Below are positions 11,506 to 21,788 of a DNA stretch of 23,367 nt, piece by piece. A program made the position numbers and the translations under genes. The DNA comes from a virus. The DNA is taken from UHGV virus genome UHGV-0063792. The stretch is one strand, 5' to 3'. The notes under the pieces are model-generated. The model was not told the DNA's origin and made no database searches. It worked only from the letters and a program-made list of their open reading frames with translations. Position 1 is the first letter of the stretch, and the number at the start of each line of letters is the position of its first letter.

Positions 11506-13362
11506 TTAGATATACTTGTTATAAGCAGTTTCTTTCATAAAGTAAGTACTTACTTTATTAATCTTCAGTAAAATTCCACGTGGTAGAATAACTTCAGCTT
11601 CTGACGGAAATCCTGATAAATGACCCGGAACGATAACTTTGATTCGCTCAGCTCCTTTAATTACCATACCCACGCTAGTTTCAGCATCTTCATTAGCATA
11701 TGTAGAATGACTACCCATATGCATCAAATCTTCTGCATCAACGGAACCTTCTCCTTCACCAGAAAATACTGCGCCGGAATCATCTAGAGCCATATAGTTT
11801 TTACCATGCTCACCGAAGATATTTGGTTTAAGCGATGTGGATACGAAGTTCTTGAAATAGAACATTTTATTTTCAATGTTATGACGCAAAGTTTTAAAGG
11901 TAACTTCTTGTCCACGGTAAAGTGTAGTTCCTGGAGGAAGAACTGAACCTTTAGCGAATGCAGAATCAAGCGTCTCAATATGTTTAATAGCTCGTTCCAT
12001 ATATTCTTCACGGGTAGAATCTGGTTTACCCAAAAGGAACGAGTTCATTTCAACATATGAATCTGCACAATAATCTTCAATTACATCAGATTCAGCTTGA
12101 GTTAATCCTTTTGGAGTTACTTCAGTGCTTGCGTATTCATATGCCTGAGCAGCAGATTCATTAATCAATTTATAAATGCCATTCATGACAAATTGAATAA
12201 TAGCTGTCTTTTCATCTGGCGTAGCTTTAGAACCTTTAACCAAATCATTGATAATTTTCTTAATAACATCAAAGCTATTAGAAATATTAATATCAGCAAG
12301 ATCGCTTAAAATTTTATCAGTCTTATAATCAAAGAATTCTTTATTCTTTAAATATTCTTGAGAACCTTGATATGTTATATCGCTCTGTAACTTGATAGAT
12401 GGATCACGTAAACGTGCATGGGCTAATGCAATATGATTTCGGAAGCTTTCGAGTTCATAATCACTAGATTTAAAACGAGAAGCGCTTCTCATACCGCCTA
12501 TAGCTCCTTTGCTGAAGTTTGAACCAATTTGAATAACGCCAGAGTTCATTGGTCCTTCTGCTTTATACACCGGAACTTTAGATTCAAACTCTTGATATTT
12601 CTTAGCAGCGAAGCTATCACCCTGAAGTGAAGCATCAACAGTAGAATATTGAGCTTGTGCTGCTAATCGACGACTAATTTTAGTTTTCTGAATAACAGCT
12701 TGGTCCGTGCGCTTATCATTTTCTAAAGCAATAGAAGCAGCAACAGCAACAGCTTTAGGAACAGCATTACCTGTTTTAACATCTACATAAACATCACCAA
12801 CCTTTGATTCAACTTTTGTGAATAACTCAGTTGAAATAGGAGGTACACCTGGAATGTCTTCTAAATTGGCATTTTTACGATAAACCATAATATATGCGTA
12901 CTTTTTATCATAATCCCAGATTTCCTTTAAAAGAACATATCGACCTGCTCCTTTAGTACGTACTAAACGGTCAGCAATAACTTGCATTTGACGAGCAGCG
13001 CCATTTGTTTTACTCTTTAGTACGCGGAATAAGCATGCATCAATTTTATACTGTTTCATTGTTTGAAGAGCAGTATCAAAAACAGCGTTAATGACGCCAA
13101 TTGGATTTCCACCCAAGTTTCTAAGTTTAACCAGTGATAATTTCTCGTTGACACCTATCATTACGATATGCATCATTTTATCGCCCGGCTTAACGTTTTT
13201 ATTTGTATCACCTCCAGAGGTGTATGTACAAAATCTAAATCCAGGAAGCACGCTTTCTTCGCCGGCTTGAATAGCAAAAATTTGAGGTATTTTATGCTTA
13301 GGATTTAAGTTAACAACCGGCGCCGAAGCGCCGTCAAATAATTCTGTAATAAGTTCCATCAT
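11506..13362 (-). CDS. alt: Alt, head-packaged mono-ADP-ribosyltransferase, 618 aa as read here
   Basis: R-S-E ART motifs near the C-terminus (TLYRGQ, FVSTSL, SEAEVILPRG); N-terminus MMELITELFD; position between gene 30 and gene 54 as in T4. Confidence 0.85.
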   Translation of the reverse strand: MMELITELFDGASAPVVNLNPKHKIPQIFAIQAGEESVLPGFRFCTYTSGGDTNKNVKPGDKMMHIVMIGVNEKLSLVKLRNLGGNPIGVINAVFDTALQTMKQYKIDACLFRVLKSKTNGAARQMQVIADRLVRTKGAGRYVLLKEIWDYDKKYAYIMVYRKNANLEDIPGVPPISTELFTKVESKVGDVYVDVKTGNAVPKAVAVAASIALENDKRTDQAVIQKTKISRRLAAQAQYSTVDASLQGDSFAAKKYQEFESKVPVYKAEGPMNSGVIQIGSNFSKGAIGGMRSASRFKSSDYELESFRNHIALAHARLRDPSIKLQSDITYQGSQEYLKNKEFFDYKTDKILSDLADINISNSFDVIKKIINDLVKGSKATPDEKTAIIQFVMNGIYKLINESAAQAYEYASTEVTPKGLTQAESDVIEDYCADSYVEMNSFLLGKPDSTREEYMERAIKHIETLDSAFAKGSVLPPGTTLYRGQEVTFKTLRHNIENKMFYFKNFVSTSLKPNIFGEHGKNYMALDDSGAVFSGEGEGSVDAEDLMHMGSHSTYANEDAETSVGMVIKGAERIKVIVPGHLSGFPSEAEVILPRGILLKINKVSTYFMKETAYNKYI

Positions 13363-15060: not shown

Positions 15061-15326
15061 TGTTCATCCTTTAGAGTTTGGTTTACAGCTCTATTATAAA
15101 TCAATTCATCATTAAGCTCAGTCAAAGACCTGTGGTACGTGGTTCTAACTTTATTTCCTTGCATCCAGTGCTTGACGTAAATGAAACCTTGCTCTACGCA
15201 TTTTTTAAAAATTCGTTCGTCTTTTTGAGCTCGGAATTCTGGATTGCATCTAAAAAATTGATTTACGTGACCATAATCACGTGTAGTATTACCTTCATTT
15301 TCATAAATAGTGTGAACAACAAACAT
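15057..15326 (-). CDS. Hypothetical protein, 89 aa (30.1-like position)
   Basis: ORF with ATGA overlap onto the ligase start and TAATG overlap with the upstream gene. Confidence 0.6.
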   Translation of the reverse strand: MFVVHTIYENEGNTTRDYGHVNQFFRCNPEFRAQKDERIFKKCVEQGFIYVKHWMQGNKVRTTYHRSLTELNDELIYNRAVNQTLKDEQ

Positions 15327-16162
15327 TAGAATGCTCCTTGGAAAATATTATCACCACAAGTAGGTCTATTATACAAATACTCTATACCACCGGGTTTAAT
15401 ATAGTTCCATGTCTGAAACGGATGCGTCTGATATGGATGATATGGATTATAAGGATTAAATCCAGGAGTTCTCCAGGTAGTGTTCCAACGAAAAGAATCA
15501 TTTTTAATCATCTTTTCAATTACATCTTTTATAGCTTTTTCACTATCAAAACTTTCTTTATTTTCCTTTGGTGAAAAAAGCTTATTCTCTACATCGTTCC
15601 ATGTATAAACTCGCTGTGCAGTTTTTGGAATACTGTCACGCTCTCCTCGAGCCATCCAATACACAGGAACACGTAATATTTCACTCGCATGATCGCAGTG
15701 GTGAGCGAGATCGTCAATATAACAAATTACATTATATTTCTCTTTTGCCTTTTTGAACAACTCTTCTTTTGAAGAATCATGACCACACATCATTACTTCT
15801 GAGAAGGCACCAGGAAAAAGAGCATTCAAATTAAATTGACGATTCAGCAAAGCGTCAATAGAATCACCCAATGCTGTAACAGCTACAAAATTATAATCTT
15901 CTTTTAATTTGTTAATTACACACAGAGCATCTTTATATGGAGACAAATAACGAATAAAATCTGATCGATTGTATTTTTCAATTAGCTTAACGCCAAGTTC
16001 TTCATCACAGTTAAAGAGTTTACCAGGAGAAATAAATTTCTCATCTTGGATCATTTTTAAAATATGTTCTAACGGAAGATTATATTTCTGAGCAAAATAA
16101 GGAAGGCCTGATTGCCAGCTTAAACATACTCCATCAATATCAGTTAAAATAGTAGGCTTCAT
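15326..16162 (-). CDS. HAD-superfamily hydrolase-like protein, 278 aa (30.2-like position)
   Basis: N-terminal ILTDIDGV (HAD motif I, DxDGx[TV]) and later YIDD acidic motif; Pro/Tyr-rich tail NPYNPYHPYQTHPFQTWNY. Confidence 0.6.
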   Translation of the reverse strand: MKPTILTDIDGVCLSWQSGLPYFAQKYNLPLEHILKMIQDEKFISPGKLFNCDEELGVKLIEKYNRSDFIRYLSPYKDALCVINKLKEDYNFVAVTALGDSIDALLNRQFNLNALFPGAFSEVMMCGHDSSKEELFKKAKEKYNVICYIDDLAHHCDHASEILRVPVYWMARGERDSIPKTAQRVYTWNDVENKLFSPKENKESFDSEKAIKDVIEKMIKNDSFRWNTTWRTPGFNPYNPYHPYQTHPFQTWNYIKPGGIEYLYNRPTCGDNIFQGAF

Positions 16163-16617
16163 AGAGAGTCTCTTAATAGGTTTAACACATCAATAAATTC
16201 AGCTTCGGTTAGTATTGTATCATCTTTTGTTAGACCACTAGCCATGCTGTGCTTCAAAACTTTTCCTTTCGAGGCTTGTAATGCATCACGAAAGCCCTTG
16301 TTTTGGATCGCTGCTTCAAAATATGCATTTGTGTATAATTCTTTCCACGCCGGGGAGTATCTTGAAAATGGAACTCCAAGCCAGAAGAGGGTCCCATGGT
16401 CCTGAGCTCTAGCATAAGACCTTCCAGCTTGTTGGGCGGCAAGCCCGGATAATCCAAATATACGACGTTGTTGTTCAACGTTTTTCACCTTACATCCTTG
16501 GAGGAATCCTTCGAGACCTCCGAATTGAATACCATCCATGACGAAAGGCCATTGGGCAAAATTACTTAATGCGCATGATGGCCATCTAAAATTACTTCTA
16601 ATCTCTAACTCAGACAT
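16159..16617 (-). CDS. NADAR / YbiA-like (DUF1768) domain protein, 152 aa (30.3-like position)
   Basis: Motif LSNFAQWPFVMDGIQFGGLEGFLQGCK resembles the NADAR core (SNF..P...DG......E.[FY]Q..K); start set at ATG 16617 because the track ORF 16623 start is a TTG. Confidence 0.6.
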   Translation of the reverse strand: MSELEIRSNFRWPSCALSNFAQWPFVMDGIQFGGLEGFLQGCKVKNVEQQRRIFGLSGLAAQQAGRSYARAQDHGTLFWLGVPFSRYSPAWKELYTNAYFEAAIQNKGFRDALQASKGKVLKHSMASGLTKDDTILTEAEFIDVLNLLRDSL

Positions 16618-18092: not shown

Positions 18093-18124
18093 TTTATTCT
18101 CCTTTGTTTGTGTAAGATAATACT

Positions 18125-18154
18125 ATCATATCACAAAGGAACCATACTGTAAAC
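18125..18154 (-). promoter_or_regulatory. Candidate early promoter
   Basis: Minus strand GTTTAC, 18 nt, TATGAT; shares the GATATGATA motif and the GGAGAATAAAATG RBS with the promoter at 17729-17757. Confidence 0.3.
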
Positions 18155-18426: not shown

Positions 18427-18782
18427 TGCCTGCGCAAGCCCTCAAGGGGAACATAGGTTTTTTGATATTTAACGACCAGGATAACCATAAACCCGTCATC
18501 ATACCTTATAGCTCTTATCTGTTGCACACCGTTAGCTTAAAGGTTCCGGGTTCGATTTCTCGAGGATAAGATATATACTGATGGATATATAGGCCTTGAG
18601 GCGTACTCCCGATTGGCCATCACCTCGGGGTAGCATGCACTTGCCGCTATAAGAATAACATTCAAGAGGTACACCGTAAAACTGCCGGGGTCTTAAAACT
18701 ATAATGATTCGCAAATCATTAATCAGACAGTTCGACGGCTCCTCGTTTTAACTTCACACTAAGGCAGTGAATCTCCAATAAA
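18427..18782. other. 355-bp non-coding, locally GC-rich region with multiple hairpins between rIII and the small basic protein gene
   Basis: No ORF with an ATG start and RBS on either strand; inverted repeats at 18560-18600, 18608-18629, 18702-18721 and 18752-18770. Confidence 0.4.
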
Positions 18783-19031
18783 TTACTTCAGTGTTACCAC
18801 AAAGTGACGAACTGCTTTTCGTGCAGCAGAAGCCAGAGGCTTAGCATATTTAAGTTCATCTTTTTCCTGAAGCTCAGCAGCTAATGCAGTTTGAGCAGGA
18901 TTCAGATGTTTGAAATAACGCAGGATTTCAAGAGCTTCGGCTTCAACATCAATAGATGCGCCATAGTTTTCGTGACCATTATTCCATGCGTTTCGTTGCA
19001 GTTCAAGAGCGTGTTGTAATTGTTTAATCAT
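18783..19031 (-). CDS. rIII: RIII lysis-inhibition accessory protein, 82 aa
   Basis: 82-aa ORF MIKQLQHALELQRNAWNNGHENYGASIDVEAEALEILRYFKHL, matching T4 RIII in sequence and length. Confidence 0.85.
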   Translation of the reverse strand: MIKQLQHALELQRNAWNNGHENYGASIDVEAEALEILRYFKHLNPAQTALAAELQEKDELKYAKPLASAARKAVRHFVVTLK

Positions 19032-19170
19032 TTAAAAATTCTCGTTAGAGATTAAAACTCGGTAGTCACGTTCTTCTGAATTTCATCTTCTTTCGACAGA
19101 TCTCTCAGTTGTAGACTACCACATAGAATTGTTCGGTTAACTTATTATTCCGACACCAAATTCATATTAT

Positions 19171-19178
19171 TATTTATA
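19171..19178 (-). promoter_or_regulatory. Possible late promoter TATAAATA upstream of rIII
   Basis: Exact TATAAATA on the minus strand just after the gene 31 stop, about 140 nt upstream of the rIII ATG; the long spacing lowers confidence. Confidence 0.25.
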
Positions 19179-19514
19179 TCACTTATAAAGACACGGAATA
19201 GCTTTATAGTGACAGGTAACGAATTTTTGTTTAATTTCTTTTGGCTGCTTAAAACCCAGAGCTACAAAAGGGTGTGGAACGTTTCGAATTTGACCAACTG
19301 GAAGAGAAGTCAAATCACCAACTTCACAGAAACCTTCAGGAACATCAGGACCGACAGAGTGAACTACACACAGTTCAGGAACTTCACCTTGAACACGTTT
19401 ACCGATAATAAGTCCTGATTCTGTAACTTCTTCATCACCGGCTTGTGCAGGTTCAGAAACTAAAATAACATATTCACCGACAGCACGAATTGGTAGCTGT
19501 TGTACTTCAGACAT
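19179..19514 (-). CDS. 31: gp31 co-chaperonin (GroES analogue for capsid protein folding), 111 aa
   Basis: 111-aa [33 protein letters not shown] with AAGGA SD; matches T4 gp31. Confidence 0.9.
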
Positions 19515-19544
19515 CGTTTTTCCTTTTTGTTAACAGATGAATTA

Positions 19545-19569
19545 ATAATAACAAATAATTCTTAAAGCA
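19545..19569 (-). promoter_or_regulatory. Candidate MotA-dependent middle promoter for gene 31
   Basis: Minus strand aaTGCTTTA (MotA box), 12 nt, TATTAT; about 30 nt upstream of the gene 31 ATG. Confidence 0.4.
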
Positions 19570-19570
19570 T

Positions 19571-19879
19571 TTATTTACCAATAAATTGGAGCAAATGCTC
19601 AACTTTCATACCATTAACGGAAATCAATTTGTCAATAGAAAAACCTCGCCATGCACCAAGTTCAACATCAAATACTGGAATCATATCAGTAGATTCTTTC
19701 CGAGTAGATTCAGTCAATTTACCAGTTTGCATGGTTGGCATAAAGTCAGCATCGCGAGTACCTTTCATAACACGAATAGTACCATCAGACTTTTCAAAAA
19801 CTACGTTTGAAACACCCATGGACAATTTAGTTTTCAAAATTTCACGAATTGCTACTTTTTGTTCAGTCGTCAGTTTCAT
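19571..19879 (-). CDS. Hypothetical protein, 102 aa (31.1-like position)
   Basis: ORF whose ATG directly follows the TAA that closes the start-less frame upstream (TAAATG). Confidence 0.6.
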   Translation of the reverse strand: MKLTTEQKVAIREILKTKLSMGVSNVVFEKSDGTIRVMKGTRDADFMPTMQTGKLTESTRKESTDMIPVFDVELGAWRGFSIDKLISVNGMKVEHLLQFIGK

Positions 19880-20118
19880 TTATTTACCTATTACAGTTTT
19901 AATATGAGTTGTTCCACGTTCTTTAAGAGTGGAAAGTAATTTTTGGCATTTTTCTAAATCAGATTTCCAACTATGTGGTCTATCAATACAAACCCAGTTT
20001 GACTTATAATACTGCTTCCATTTAGAGAAAAAATACTTCTTATACTCTACAGCAAATGAAATGTTCTCGTTGGAATAAGAGAACTAATTGCTGTGAGCTG
20101 TACCAAACGAAATTTCAT
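19880..20118 (-). pseudogene. Frame-disrupted small gene between cd and the 102-aa ORF
   Basis: ATG at 20118..20116 (TAATG overlap with the cd stop) opens a 23-codon frame ending in TAG near 20050; the -1 frame is open without any ATG for 62 codons from about 20083 to TAA 19882..19880. Confidence 0.35.
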
Positions 20119-20699
20119 TATTCACCACAGAATTCGTTGATATTTTCCCAGTTTAACTTATTTAAGTTTTTCTTAGGAACATTAAACACTTCAATACCTG
20201 CATTTCGCAGAATATCATCCCAGCCAGGTTTATTTTTATCGTATGTTTCACAATAAACCAGCTTTTTAATTCCAGATTGAGCTATTGCTTTTGCACAATC
20301 TGGGCAAGGAGAAAGTGTTACATACATAGTAGCACCTTCAATTGAAGAACCGTTTCGTGCAGCAAACAAAATCGCATTTAGTTCAGCATGAATTTCATTT
20401 TTAGACGACCATTCAGAGTGCGCGCTACGATGTTCTTTCGCCAATACAAAACGATCAGTTGAACCAAACGATACACATTCAGGCTTATGACCTTGAATGA
20501 TAGTATGTTTAGGCTTATTCAGCAACCAACCTTGCTCAGCAGCATAATCACAGCAGTTCACACCACCTGCAGGTGAACCATTATATCCAGTAGAAATAAT
20601 ACGTCCATTCTTTTCAATTACTGCTCCTACTTTCCAGGAGCAACATTTTGATTCTTGTGATACTAAATATGCAATTTGAAGTACTGTACTCGCTTTCAT
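20118..20699 (-). CDS. cd: dCMP deaminase, 193 aa
   Basis: Cytidine/dCMP deaminase zinc motifs HAE (IHAELNAI) and PCxxC (SPCPDCAKAI); 193 aa as T4 Cd. Confidence 0.9.
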   Translation of the reverse strand: MKASTVLQIAYLVSQESKCCSWKVGAVIEKNGRIISTGYNGSPAGGVNCCDYAAEQGWLLNKPKHTIIQGHKPECVSFGSTDRFVLAKEHRSAHSEWSSKNEIHAELNAILFAARNGSSIEGATMYVTLSPCPDCAKAIAQSGIKKLVYCETYDKNKPGWDDILRNAGIEVFNVPKKNLNKLNWENINEFCGE

Positions 20700-21034
20700 T
20701 TCATAATCACCAGATAAGCAGATTTAGCAGTTTCAACACGATAAATTTCGTGACGAAGTTTAGTTATACTTTTAATAACAGAACTAATTATATTCTGCCC
20801 ATCTTTAAAGCGGTTTTTCTTATCAATAAAAATTGCACCAGCCATCTTTTTGTGAAGCTCAACTGGATACTTCGTCACAATAATAGCATCATACACAGAA
20901 GGATGAATACTATTCACTAGAGTATCGTTCATTAAAGTTATTCTAATGAACTGTGCTGTTTCAGAGTCAAGCGCTCTATGATCGCCAGTATCATTTTCAA
21001 GACAATTATCAATTATATCAGTTAAATTCATCAT
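20696..21034 (-). CDS. Hypothetical protein, 112 aa (cd.x-like)
   Basis: ORF with ATGA overlaps at both ends. Confidence 0.6.
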   Translation of the reverse strand: MMNLTDIIDNCLENDTGDHRALDSETAQFIRITLMNDTLVNSIHPSVYDAIIVTKYPVELHKKMAGAIFIDKKNRFKDGQNIISSVIKSITKLRHEIYRVETAKSAYLVIMK

Positions 21035-21267
21035 AGTACGCCATACACCCTTTGTGCTTCAACTAATCCATCAAAATCCAATTTGAGATGTGTTATTTGG
21101 TCACCATCACCTGGATTCACAATTACTAATACCGAACGAGGAGTTTCGGTAATAACACGAACCGACGTTTCAGGAAATCGTTCAGAAACCTTATTTACCA
21201 ATTCTTGAGCAAATAGTTTAACTTTTTCTTGGAATTCTTTAACAGTAATTGGTTTTTCGCTTAGCAT
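21031..21267 (-). CDS. Hypothetical protein, 78 aa (cd.x-like)
   Basis: ORF with ATG start; overlaps the upstream gene stop by 7 nt. Confidence 0.55.
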   Translation of the reverse strand: MLSEKPITVKEFQEKVKLFAQELVNKVSERFPETSVRVITETPRSVLVIVNPGDGDQITHLKLDFDGLVEAQRVYGVL

Positions 21268-21788
21268 GTTGATCCTAGCTCCTTACTTTCAACATTTTTA
21301 ACTAATTTGACAGAAACTAATTCAGCATCTTGGGTAATCATTACCGGACCTTCTTCATGCTCTTCAAGATATTCTAGAGCTTTCTTTTTAGCTTCTTCCT
21401 TCGTATCAGTTTGAGCATAGATATAGAACATACAACCAGTAATACCTACTACTTTCCACTTAATTTCTTTATCAGTTTTAATTTCAAATTTACTTACAGA
21501 ATCATCTTTTTGAACTTCTTCGAAAAAAGAATATTCTAACATATAAGCAATTGAAAATAACGGGCTAACTTTATAGGATTCACCCATTACATCAACAGCT
21601 TTATACCAACAATCATCAATTTCACGTTTAATGCTAATAACATTTTTCGCAGGATCTATTTTTACTTTAAATGAATTTTCCCCAATAAACTGGGCAATTC
21701 GTTTATTGGCCCCGCAAGTTTCATTAAAAATATCTTTATATCCAGCTTTAAAGCGATAAACCTTATCTTCTTCAAACCATTCGCTCAT
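21261..21788 (-). CDS. Hypothetical protein, 175 aa (cd.x-like)
   Basis: ORF with GAGGAAAT SD 9 nt before the ATG; downstream of the candidate early promoter at 21819-21848. Confidence 0.6.
   Translation of the reverse strand: MSEWFEEDKVYRFKAGYKDIFNETCGANKRIAQFIGENSFKVKIDPAKNVISIKREIDDCWYKAVDVMGESYKVSPLFSIAYMLEYSFFEEVQKDDSVSKFEIKTDKEIKWKVVGITGCMFYIYAQTDTKEEAKKKALEYLEEHEEGPVMITQDAELVSVKLVKNVESKELGSTC

Follow-up and report, generated by a model that had tools for sequence, protein, structure and literature searches.

A private two-base duplication interrupts a T4 gene 31.2-like reading frame in a Tequatrovirus genome sequence

We examined the interval between cd and 31.1 in a 23,367-nt stretch of viral DNA (UHGV virus genome UHGV-0063792), hereafter called the window, which belongs to a Tequatrovirus and is closest to vB_EcoM_G4498 (99.0% identity over 23.4 kb). 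The genes of this locus are read from the minus strand, and the coordinates of the features discussed are collected in Table 1. The stop codon of cd (TAA, 20120-20118) shares its last A with an ATG located at 20118-20116 (TAATG), and a Shine-Dalgarno-like sequence, GGTGA, is found just 5' of this native ATG. The frame that opens there is made of 13 native codons (MKFRLVQLTAISS), after which 10 codons are read out of frame (LIPTRTFHLL) before a TAG is reached at 20049-20047. A second frame begins after another TAG, at 20086-20084, shares 34 nt with the 3' part of the first (20083-20050, about 11 codons) and ends in a TAA that is directly followed by the ATG of 31.1, at 19879 (TAAATG). No ATG, GTG or TTG is present in this second frame, which contains only three ATT codons and one ATA codon. 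An earlier, sequence-only reading of the locus had described an ATG overlapping the cd stop, a frame closed after 23 codons and a start-less second frame whose TAA is fused to the start of the next gene, and all of this was confirmed on the minus strand. The length that it gave for the second frame, 62 codons, has to be corrected to 67, which is also the number of residues in the peptide that it wrote out.

Table 1. Genes, reading frames and private insertions and deletions of the window discussed in the text
Feature	Position	Strand	Basis or sequence change
cd (dCMP deaminase, 193 aa)	20118..20699	-	ORF list; annotation in relatives and T4
Truncated 31.2 frame, 23 codons, MKFRLVQLTAISSLIPTRTFHLL and stop	20047..20118	-	ORF list; alignment with intact orthologs
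Displaced remainder of 31.2, 67 sense codons (19883-20083) and TAA (19882-19880)	19880..20083	-	
31.1 (102 aa, WYL_2 / SH3 beta-barrel)	19571..19879	-	Pfam PF10902, E = 2.1e-20; T4 annotation
Lesion in 31.2, 2-bp tandem duplication	20078..20079	-	Coding TC to TCTC; pairwise and multiple alignments
Lesion in alt-like ADP-ribosyltransferase gene (gene 11506-13362), +2, AT duplication	11510-11511	-	
11-bp deletion breaking the 68-aa gene 30.4	before 16686	-	Coding GAAAAGGACCCTAACTGG to GAACTGG
5-bp tandem duplication in early-promoter-like sequence upstream of 30.8	18124-18128		TATCA (+ strand)

In G4498, DalCa, phage 132 and T4, as in all close relatives, the space between cd and 31.1 is occupied by a single gene of 237 nt encoding 78 aa, whose ATG overlaps the cd stop and whose own stop abuts the 31.1 start. 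The T4 counterpart is gene 31.2 (NP_049827, T4p216, 78 aa; 'ORF A (AA 1-78)' of X17657). The 67-codon frame of the window corresponds to residues 13-78 of the intact 31.2 protein and is nucleotide-identical to 31.2 of DalCa. Its translation matched the phrog_2010 profile with E = 9.6e-33 over positions 13-77 of 78, which places this open frame far beyond chance, and the 78-aa protein obtained after repair of the frame matched the same profile with E = 1e-40. The family PF26895 (Phage_T4_Y13C) is carried by 31.2 homologs in a large protein collection, according to precomputed assignments. The repaired protein is 96% identical to that of T4 gene 31.2, with which the interval also shares its position between cd and 31.1, its TAATG start and its TAAATG end. 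Judged from these sequence similarities, the interval is orthologous to gene 31.2 of T4, which encodes an early-region protein. However, the frame of T4 31.2 is intact (78 aa), whereas that of the window is broken by a +2 duplication after codon 13. The locus thus has the profile match and the position between cd and 31.1 with an overlapping start that characterize the family, while the single uninterrupted ORF of 77-80 codons is missing; because the duplication closes the frame after 23 codons, we consider the locus to be a disrupted (pseudo)gene of the family rather than an intact member.

Comparison of 1161 bp of the window, running from 31.1 through cd, with at least 23 phage genomes showed that the 2-bp duplication was the sole difference (99.8% identity, 1159 bases in the record against 1161 in the query, two gap columns). 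On the coding strand, AGTTCTTATT became AGTTCTCTTATT, and on the + strand AAGAAC became AAGAGAAC. The exact placement of the two bases is ambiguous within 20078-20082, and they fall after codon 13 of 31.2. Their deletion restored a 78-aa protein, MKFRLVQLTAISSYSNENISF...TVIGK, identical to that of DalCa. The proposal that one gene of about 80 aa, 31.2-like, once filled the interval and is now frame-shifted was therefore borne out, since the relatives carry a 78-aa gene from which the window differs by these 2 bp only, and the tblastn comparison suggested for it recovered the 31.2 protein in 613 phage records. The duplication was absent from all 501 phage records matching a 79-nt probe that spans the site; the best match reached 97.5% (77 of 79 bases), so that none of the 501 carries it. 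Exact-pattern scans of IMG/VR and of metagenome and genome contigs returned no copy of the mutant allele either, but these negatives are weak, since the wild-type probe itself gave no match in IMG/VR and was found in only 4 metagenome contigs.

An imperfect inverted repeat is present at 20062-20085 (GTTCTC/GAGAAC, with a loop of 10 nt), and the duplication lengthened it from 5 to 6 complementary bases. This lengthening may be a coincidence, or it may hint at a hairpin-associated mutation mechanism.

The gene order cd-31.2-31.1-31 and the length of 77-78 aa are kept in the Tequatro-, Gapriver-, Gelderland- and Dhakaviruses. This applies to the Gaprivervirus VR7, the Gelderlandvirus STP4-a and the Dhakaviruses CLB_P2 and MX01, with identities ranging from 47% to 58%. 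In each of 40 records sampled evenly from the 613 tblastn matches, a single unbroken match adjoining cd covered the protein from its first residue to residue 76-78. An alignment of 24 homologs contained 14 invariant columns, among which were V23, E24 and Y25, F29, F30 and S31, and W33 and K34. Pairwise dN/dS values (Nei-Gojobori), taken where dS was not saturated, ranged from 0.09 to 0.31. The conserved position in four genera of Tevenvirinae and these dN/dS values argue that 31.2 is a real gene. Had the relatives encoded no more than a 23-aa protein, followed by sequence that is not conserved, this would have spoken against a broken gene; what they contain is a full gene under purifying selection.

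The AlphaFold model of 31.2 was poor when made from the single sequence (pLDDT 44.8) and confident when made with the alignment of 24 sequences (pLDDT 83.5). The fold predicted from the 24 homologs consists of strands at residues 2-11, 17-26 and 34-38, a helix at 47-66 and a last strand at 71-74. A Foldseek search of this model against viral models gave no match at E <= 0.001, the best being N4 gp5 with E = 5e-3. PADLOC gave no match to 31.2, and searches of the literature for gp31.2 or Y13C returned nothing relevant.

A coding sequence that is interrupted by a stop and continues in another register resembles the bypass of T4 gene 60 and programmed -1 sites, and translational bypassing is classically associated with T4. 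A programmed -1 (or +2) frameshift or a gene-60-like bypass could in principle bridge the break so that the full-length protein is still made, a possibility that the sequence-only reading had kept among its alternatives. A ribosome that shifted within the 34 nt shared by the two frames could continue into an open product, and a 6-bp hairpin (GUUCUC, a loop of 10 nt, GAGAAC) lies on the overlap, where the local fold was marginally more stable than that of shuffled sequences (z = -1.97; 6 of 200 shuffles folded as well). However, neither a slippery site nor a bypass signal could be found. The overlap contains no X XXY YYZ heptamer and no run of four or more identical bases; the one heptamer nearby, AAATTTC, does not have the required phase and is located 5' of the TAG that precedes the second frame, and the putative take-off codon, the CTG before the stop, is not repeated downstream in the phase that a bypass requires. 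A search of Rfam with E <= 1 over positions 18500-21500 gave no match. The signals that define gene 60 and -1 sites are thus absent from the window, and the interruption itself is not conserved: the two-frame arrangement was seen in none of the 501 DNA matches, and the 40 sampled protein matches are all single-frame. Recoding would also require that its signal had appeared at the same time as the insertion. We consider recoding at this locus to be highly improbable, and this part of the sequence-only reading was not upheld.

The same comparisons bear on the idea that the gene has been split into two products that are each functional, namely a micropeptide of 23 aa and a C-terminal fragment translated from a non-canonical start such as the ATT at codon 8. 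The stub retains the native start with its GGTGA sequence, and ATT codons are available in the second frame, as such a split would require. However, the arrangement was found in no relative, neither in the 501 DNA matches nor in the 40 sampled protein matches, the second frame lacks any ATG, GTG or TTG, and no evident Shine-Dalgarno sequence precedes its ATT codons. The stub gave no family match, and the C-terminal fragment would, according to the structural model, miss the first strand of the predicted beta-sheet. We give this explanation hardly any credence. We read the locus as a known gene in which either an ordinary frameshift, private to the window, or an error in the sequence has broken the frame, and not as a new feature.

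We regard it as probable that the duplication is a real and recent null mutation in a dispensable gene. By shifting the frame, it stops translation from the native start after 23 codons and leaves the other 65 native codons in a second frame without a usable start. The frameshift removes everything past residue 13, including the whole of the invariant core, and the product of such a null allele would be only a 23-residue peptide devoid of this VEYKK-FFS-WK core. The event would be very recent, because no further change has accumulated, and the loss would be tolerated, because 31.2 appears to be dispensable in laboratory growth. Ribosomes would now terminate about 167 nt 5' of the 31.1 ATG. With this earlier termination, any termination-reinitiation coupling from 31.2 to 31.1 would be lost, and 31.1 would consequently have to rely on its own weak AGG site.

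The knock-down of T4 31.2 in a CRISPRi-ART screen gave a value of -0.96 (P = 0.82) and the classification 'Not Fit' (PMC11879866, supplementary file 15). In the same screen, 31.1, cd and 30.4 were likewise 'Not Fit', and gene 31 was 'Fit' (PMC11879866). Since the screen missed 13 known essential T4 genes (PMC11879866), the classification of 31.2 supports its dispensability without being conclusive. Overall, 31.2 appears to be dispensable for growth under laboratory conditions.

Two independent frameshifts of 31.2, which also speak for its dispensability, were found in other public assemblies. In the first, from Logan SRR19902444 (a 74-kb contig; P0006, L009 1501-1740), a run of T was shortened from T6 to T5, and in the second, from ENA ERZ28657093 (P0005, L010 1314-1556), a T run was lengthened by two bases, from GGGTTTG to GGGTTTTTG. 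As in the window, 31.2 is broken in both by a small indel, while the downstream codons are otherwise unchanged. However, these indels are located in T runs and at other codons, whereas that of the window is the duplication of a TC dinucleotide outside any run. In the ENA sequence, cd was also called shorter (152 aa).

Private insertions, deletions and substitutions of the window were counted against its seven closest relatives, which gave four indels and 28 substitutions. Besides the duplication in 31.2, the indels comprise two that break a frame, in the alt-like gene and in 30.4, and a 5-bp duplication upstream of 30.8 (Table 1). The alt-like lesion changes GATTAGATAC to GATTAGATATAC on the + strand and gives an ORF of 618 aa instead of 685; deletion of the 2 bp restored the C-terminus of G4498 gp222, and the duplication was found in none of 405 probe-matching phage records. 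At 30.4, the 11 bp missing from the window are kept in 450 of 452 records matching the probe; G2540 has a different length at this spot. The TATCA duplication had no other carrier among 505 probe-matching records. Of the 28 substitutions, 22 are clustered in the block 15198-16594 (ligase-proximal 30.1-30.3), which was probably acquired, as a mosaic segment, from another lineage of Tequatrovirus, and about six are located elsewhere.

Inspection by eye of the minus strand at the TATCA duplication showed TTTACA-17 nt-TAGTAT in the relatives and TTTACA-17 nt-TATGAT in the window. The promoter-like site of the window thus has a better -10 hexamer with an unchanged spacing.

A single alt-like gene is present in the window, and all seven of the closest relatives have two tandem paralogs (2058 nt and about 2049-2097 nt). 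The absent paralog corresponds to G4498 gp221 and is next to alt.1 and the ligase gene (window positions ~13358-13362, as compared with 13558-15606 in L003). Since the remaining alt-like copy is frameshifted, an intact enzyme of the Alt type may be lacking in this phage.

The main competitor of a real null mutation in 31.2 is an artefact of sequencing, assembly, polishing or editing that added two bases to the sequence of a phage whose 78-aa 31.2 is in fact intact. We hold this to be the less probable of the two, but a serious possibility. Sequencing error had also been named as an alternative in the sequence-only reading. When a phage gene that is otherwise conserved shows an isolated frameshift, the cause is often an error. 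The insertion is unique when compared with the 501 relatives, and nothing else separates the window from many genomes over 1161 bp; the three further private indels in the same 23 kb, of which two are frame-breaking (+2 in the alt-like gene and -11 in 30.4), also point in this direction. Four private indels against about six private substitutions outside the mosaic block make the window unusually rich in indels, a profile that could just as well result from a flawed assembly. On the other hand, the lesion is a clean tandem duplication of a dinucleotide and is not located in a homopolymer, and the common platforms do not usually make errors of this kind. The three private insertions of the window are all tidy tandem duplications outside homopolymers. 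Compared with G4498, the remainder of the window proved to be of high quality, free of homopolymer noise and with 55 mismatches in 23,367 bases, only 4 of them in the first 13.4 kb. The four private indels all lie in non-fitness genes, in genes known to be non-essential or between genes; none is in an essential gene, an outcome for which chance would give about 1 in 9 if essential genes make up about 40% of the window, a proportion that is our rough estimate from the annotation.

The same set of changes could have been left by a distinct mutational process acting in the lineage of this phage, in which case the four small rearrangements would be due neither to ordinary drift nor to error. Candidate processes could be duplication of the acridine or topoisomerase type, a mutator acting through replication slippage, or mutagenesis or evolution in the laboratory. 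Classical frameshift mutations of T4 are small duplications and deletions, attributed to Streisinger slippage or to acridine- or topoisomerase-linked duplications. The three duplications of the window (2, 5 and 2 bp) are similar to those of the classical rIIB and lysozyme frameshift mutants of T4, which likewise carry tandem duplications of 1-5 bp in a non-essential gene. However, unlike the classical mutants, the window offers no evidence of exposure to a mutagen or of a mutator background, and we regard a distinct process as unlikely. If it were nevertheless at work, this would be a viable phage with true knock-outs of 31.2, of 30.4 and of its one remaining alt-like gene.

For biology at large, the recent null mutation that we favour in 31.2 has little significance, and it is mostly an annotation matter. 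If it is real, the window contains a natural knock-out that adds to the evidence from the screen for the dispensability of 31.2, and a phage in which 31.2, 30.4 and the alt-like gene are all broken would lend itself to a search for conditional phenotypes, for instance in hosts carrying defence systems. In the annotation, the locus should appear as a disrupted 31.2, or be corrected once the reads have been checked, and not as a 23-aa gene followed by an orphan frame.

The labels given to these small genes in other phages differ. Both 31.2 and 31.1 are labelled 'tail fiber protein' in many phage records (for example MH992510, KJ000058 and OL770107), and 'deoxycytidylate deaminase' was also given once, without supporting similarity. 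Since phrog_2010 is annotated as a family of unknown function and 31.1 belongs to the WYL_2/SH3 beta-barrel proteins, the label 'tail fiber protein' appears to be a propagated mis-annotation.
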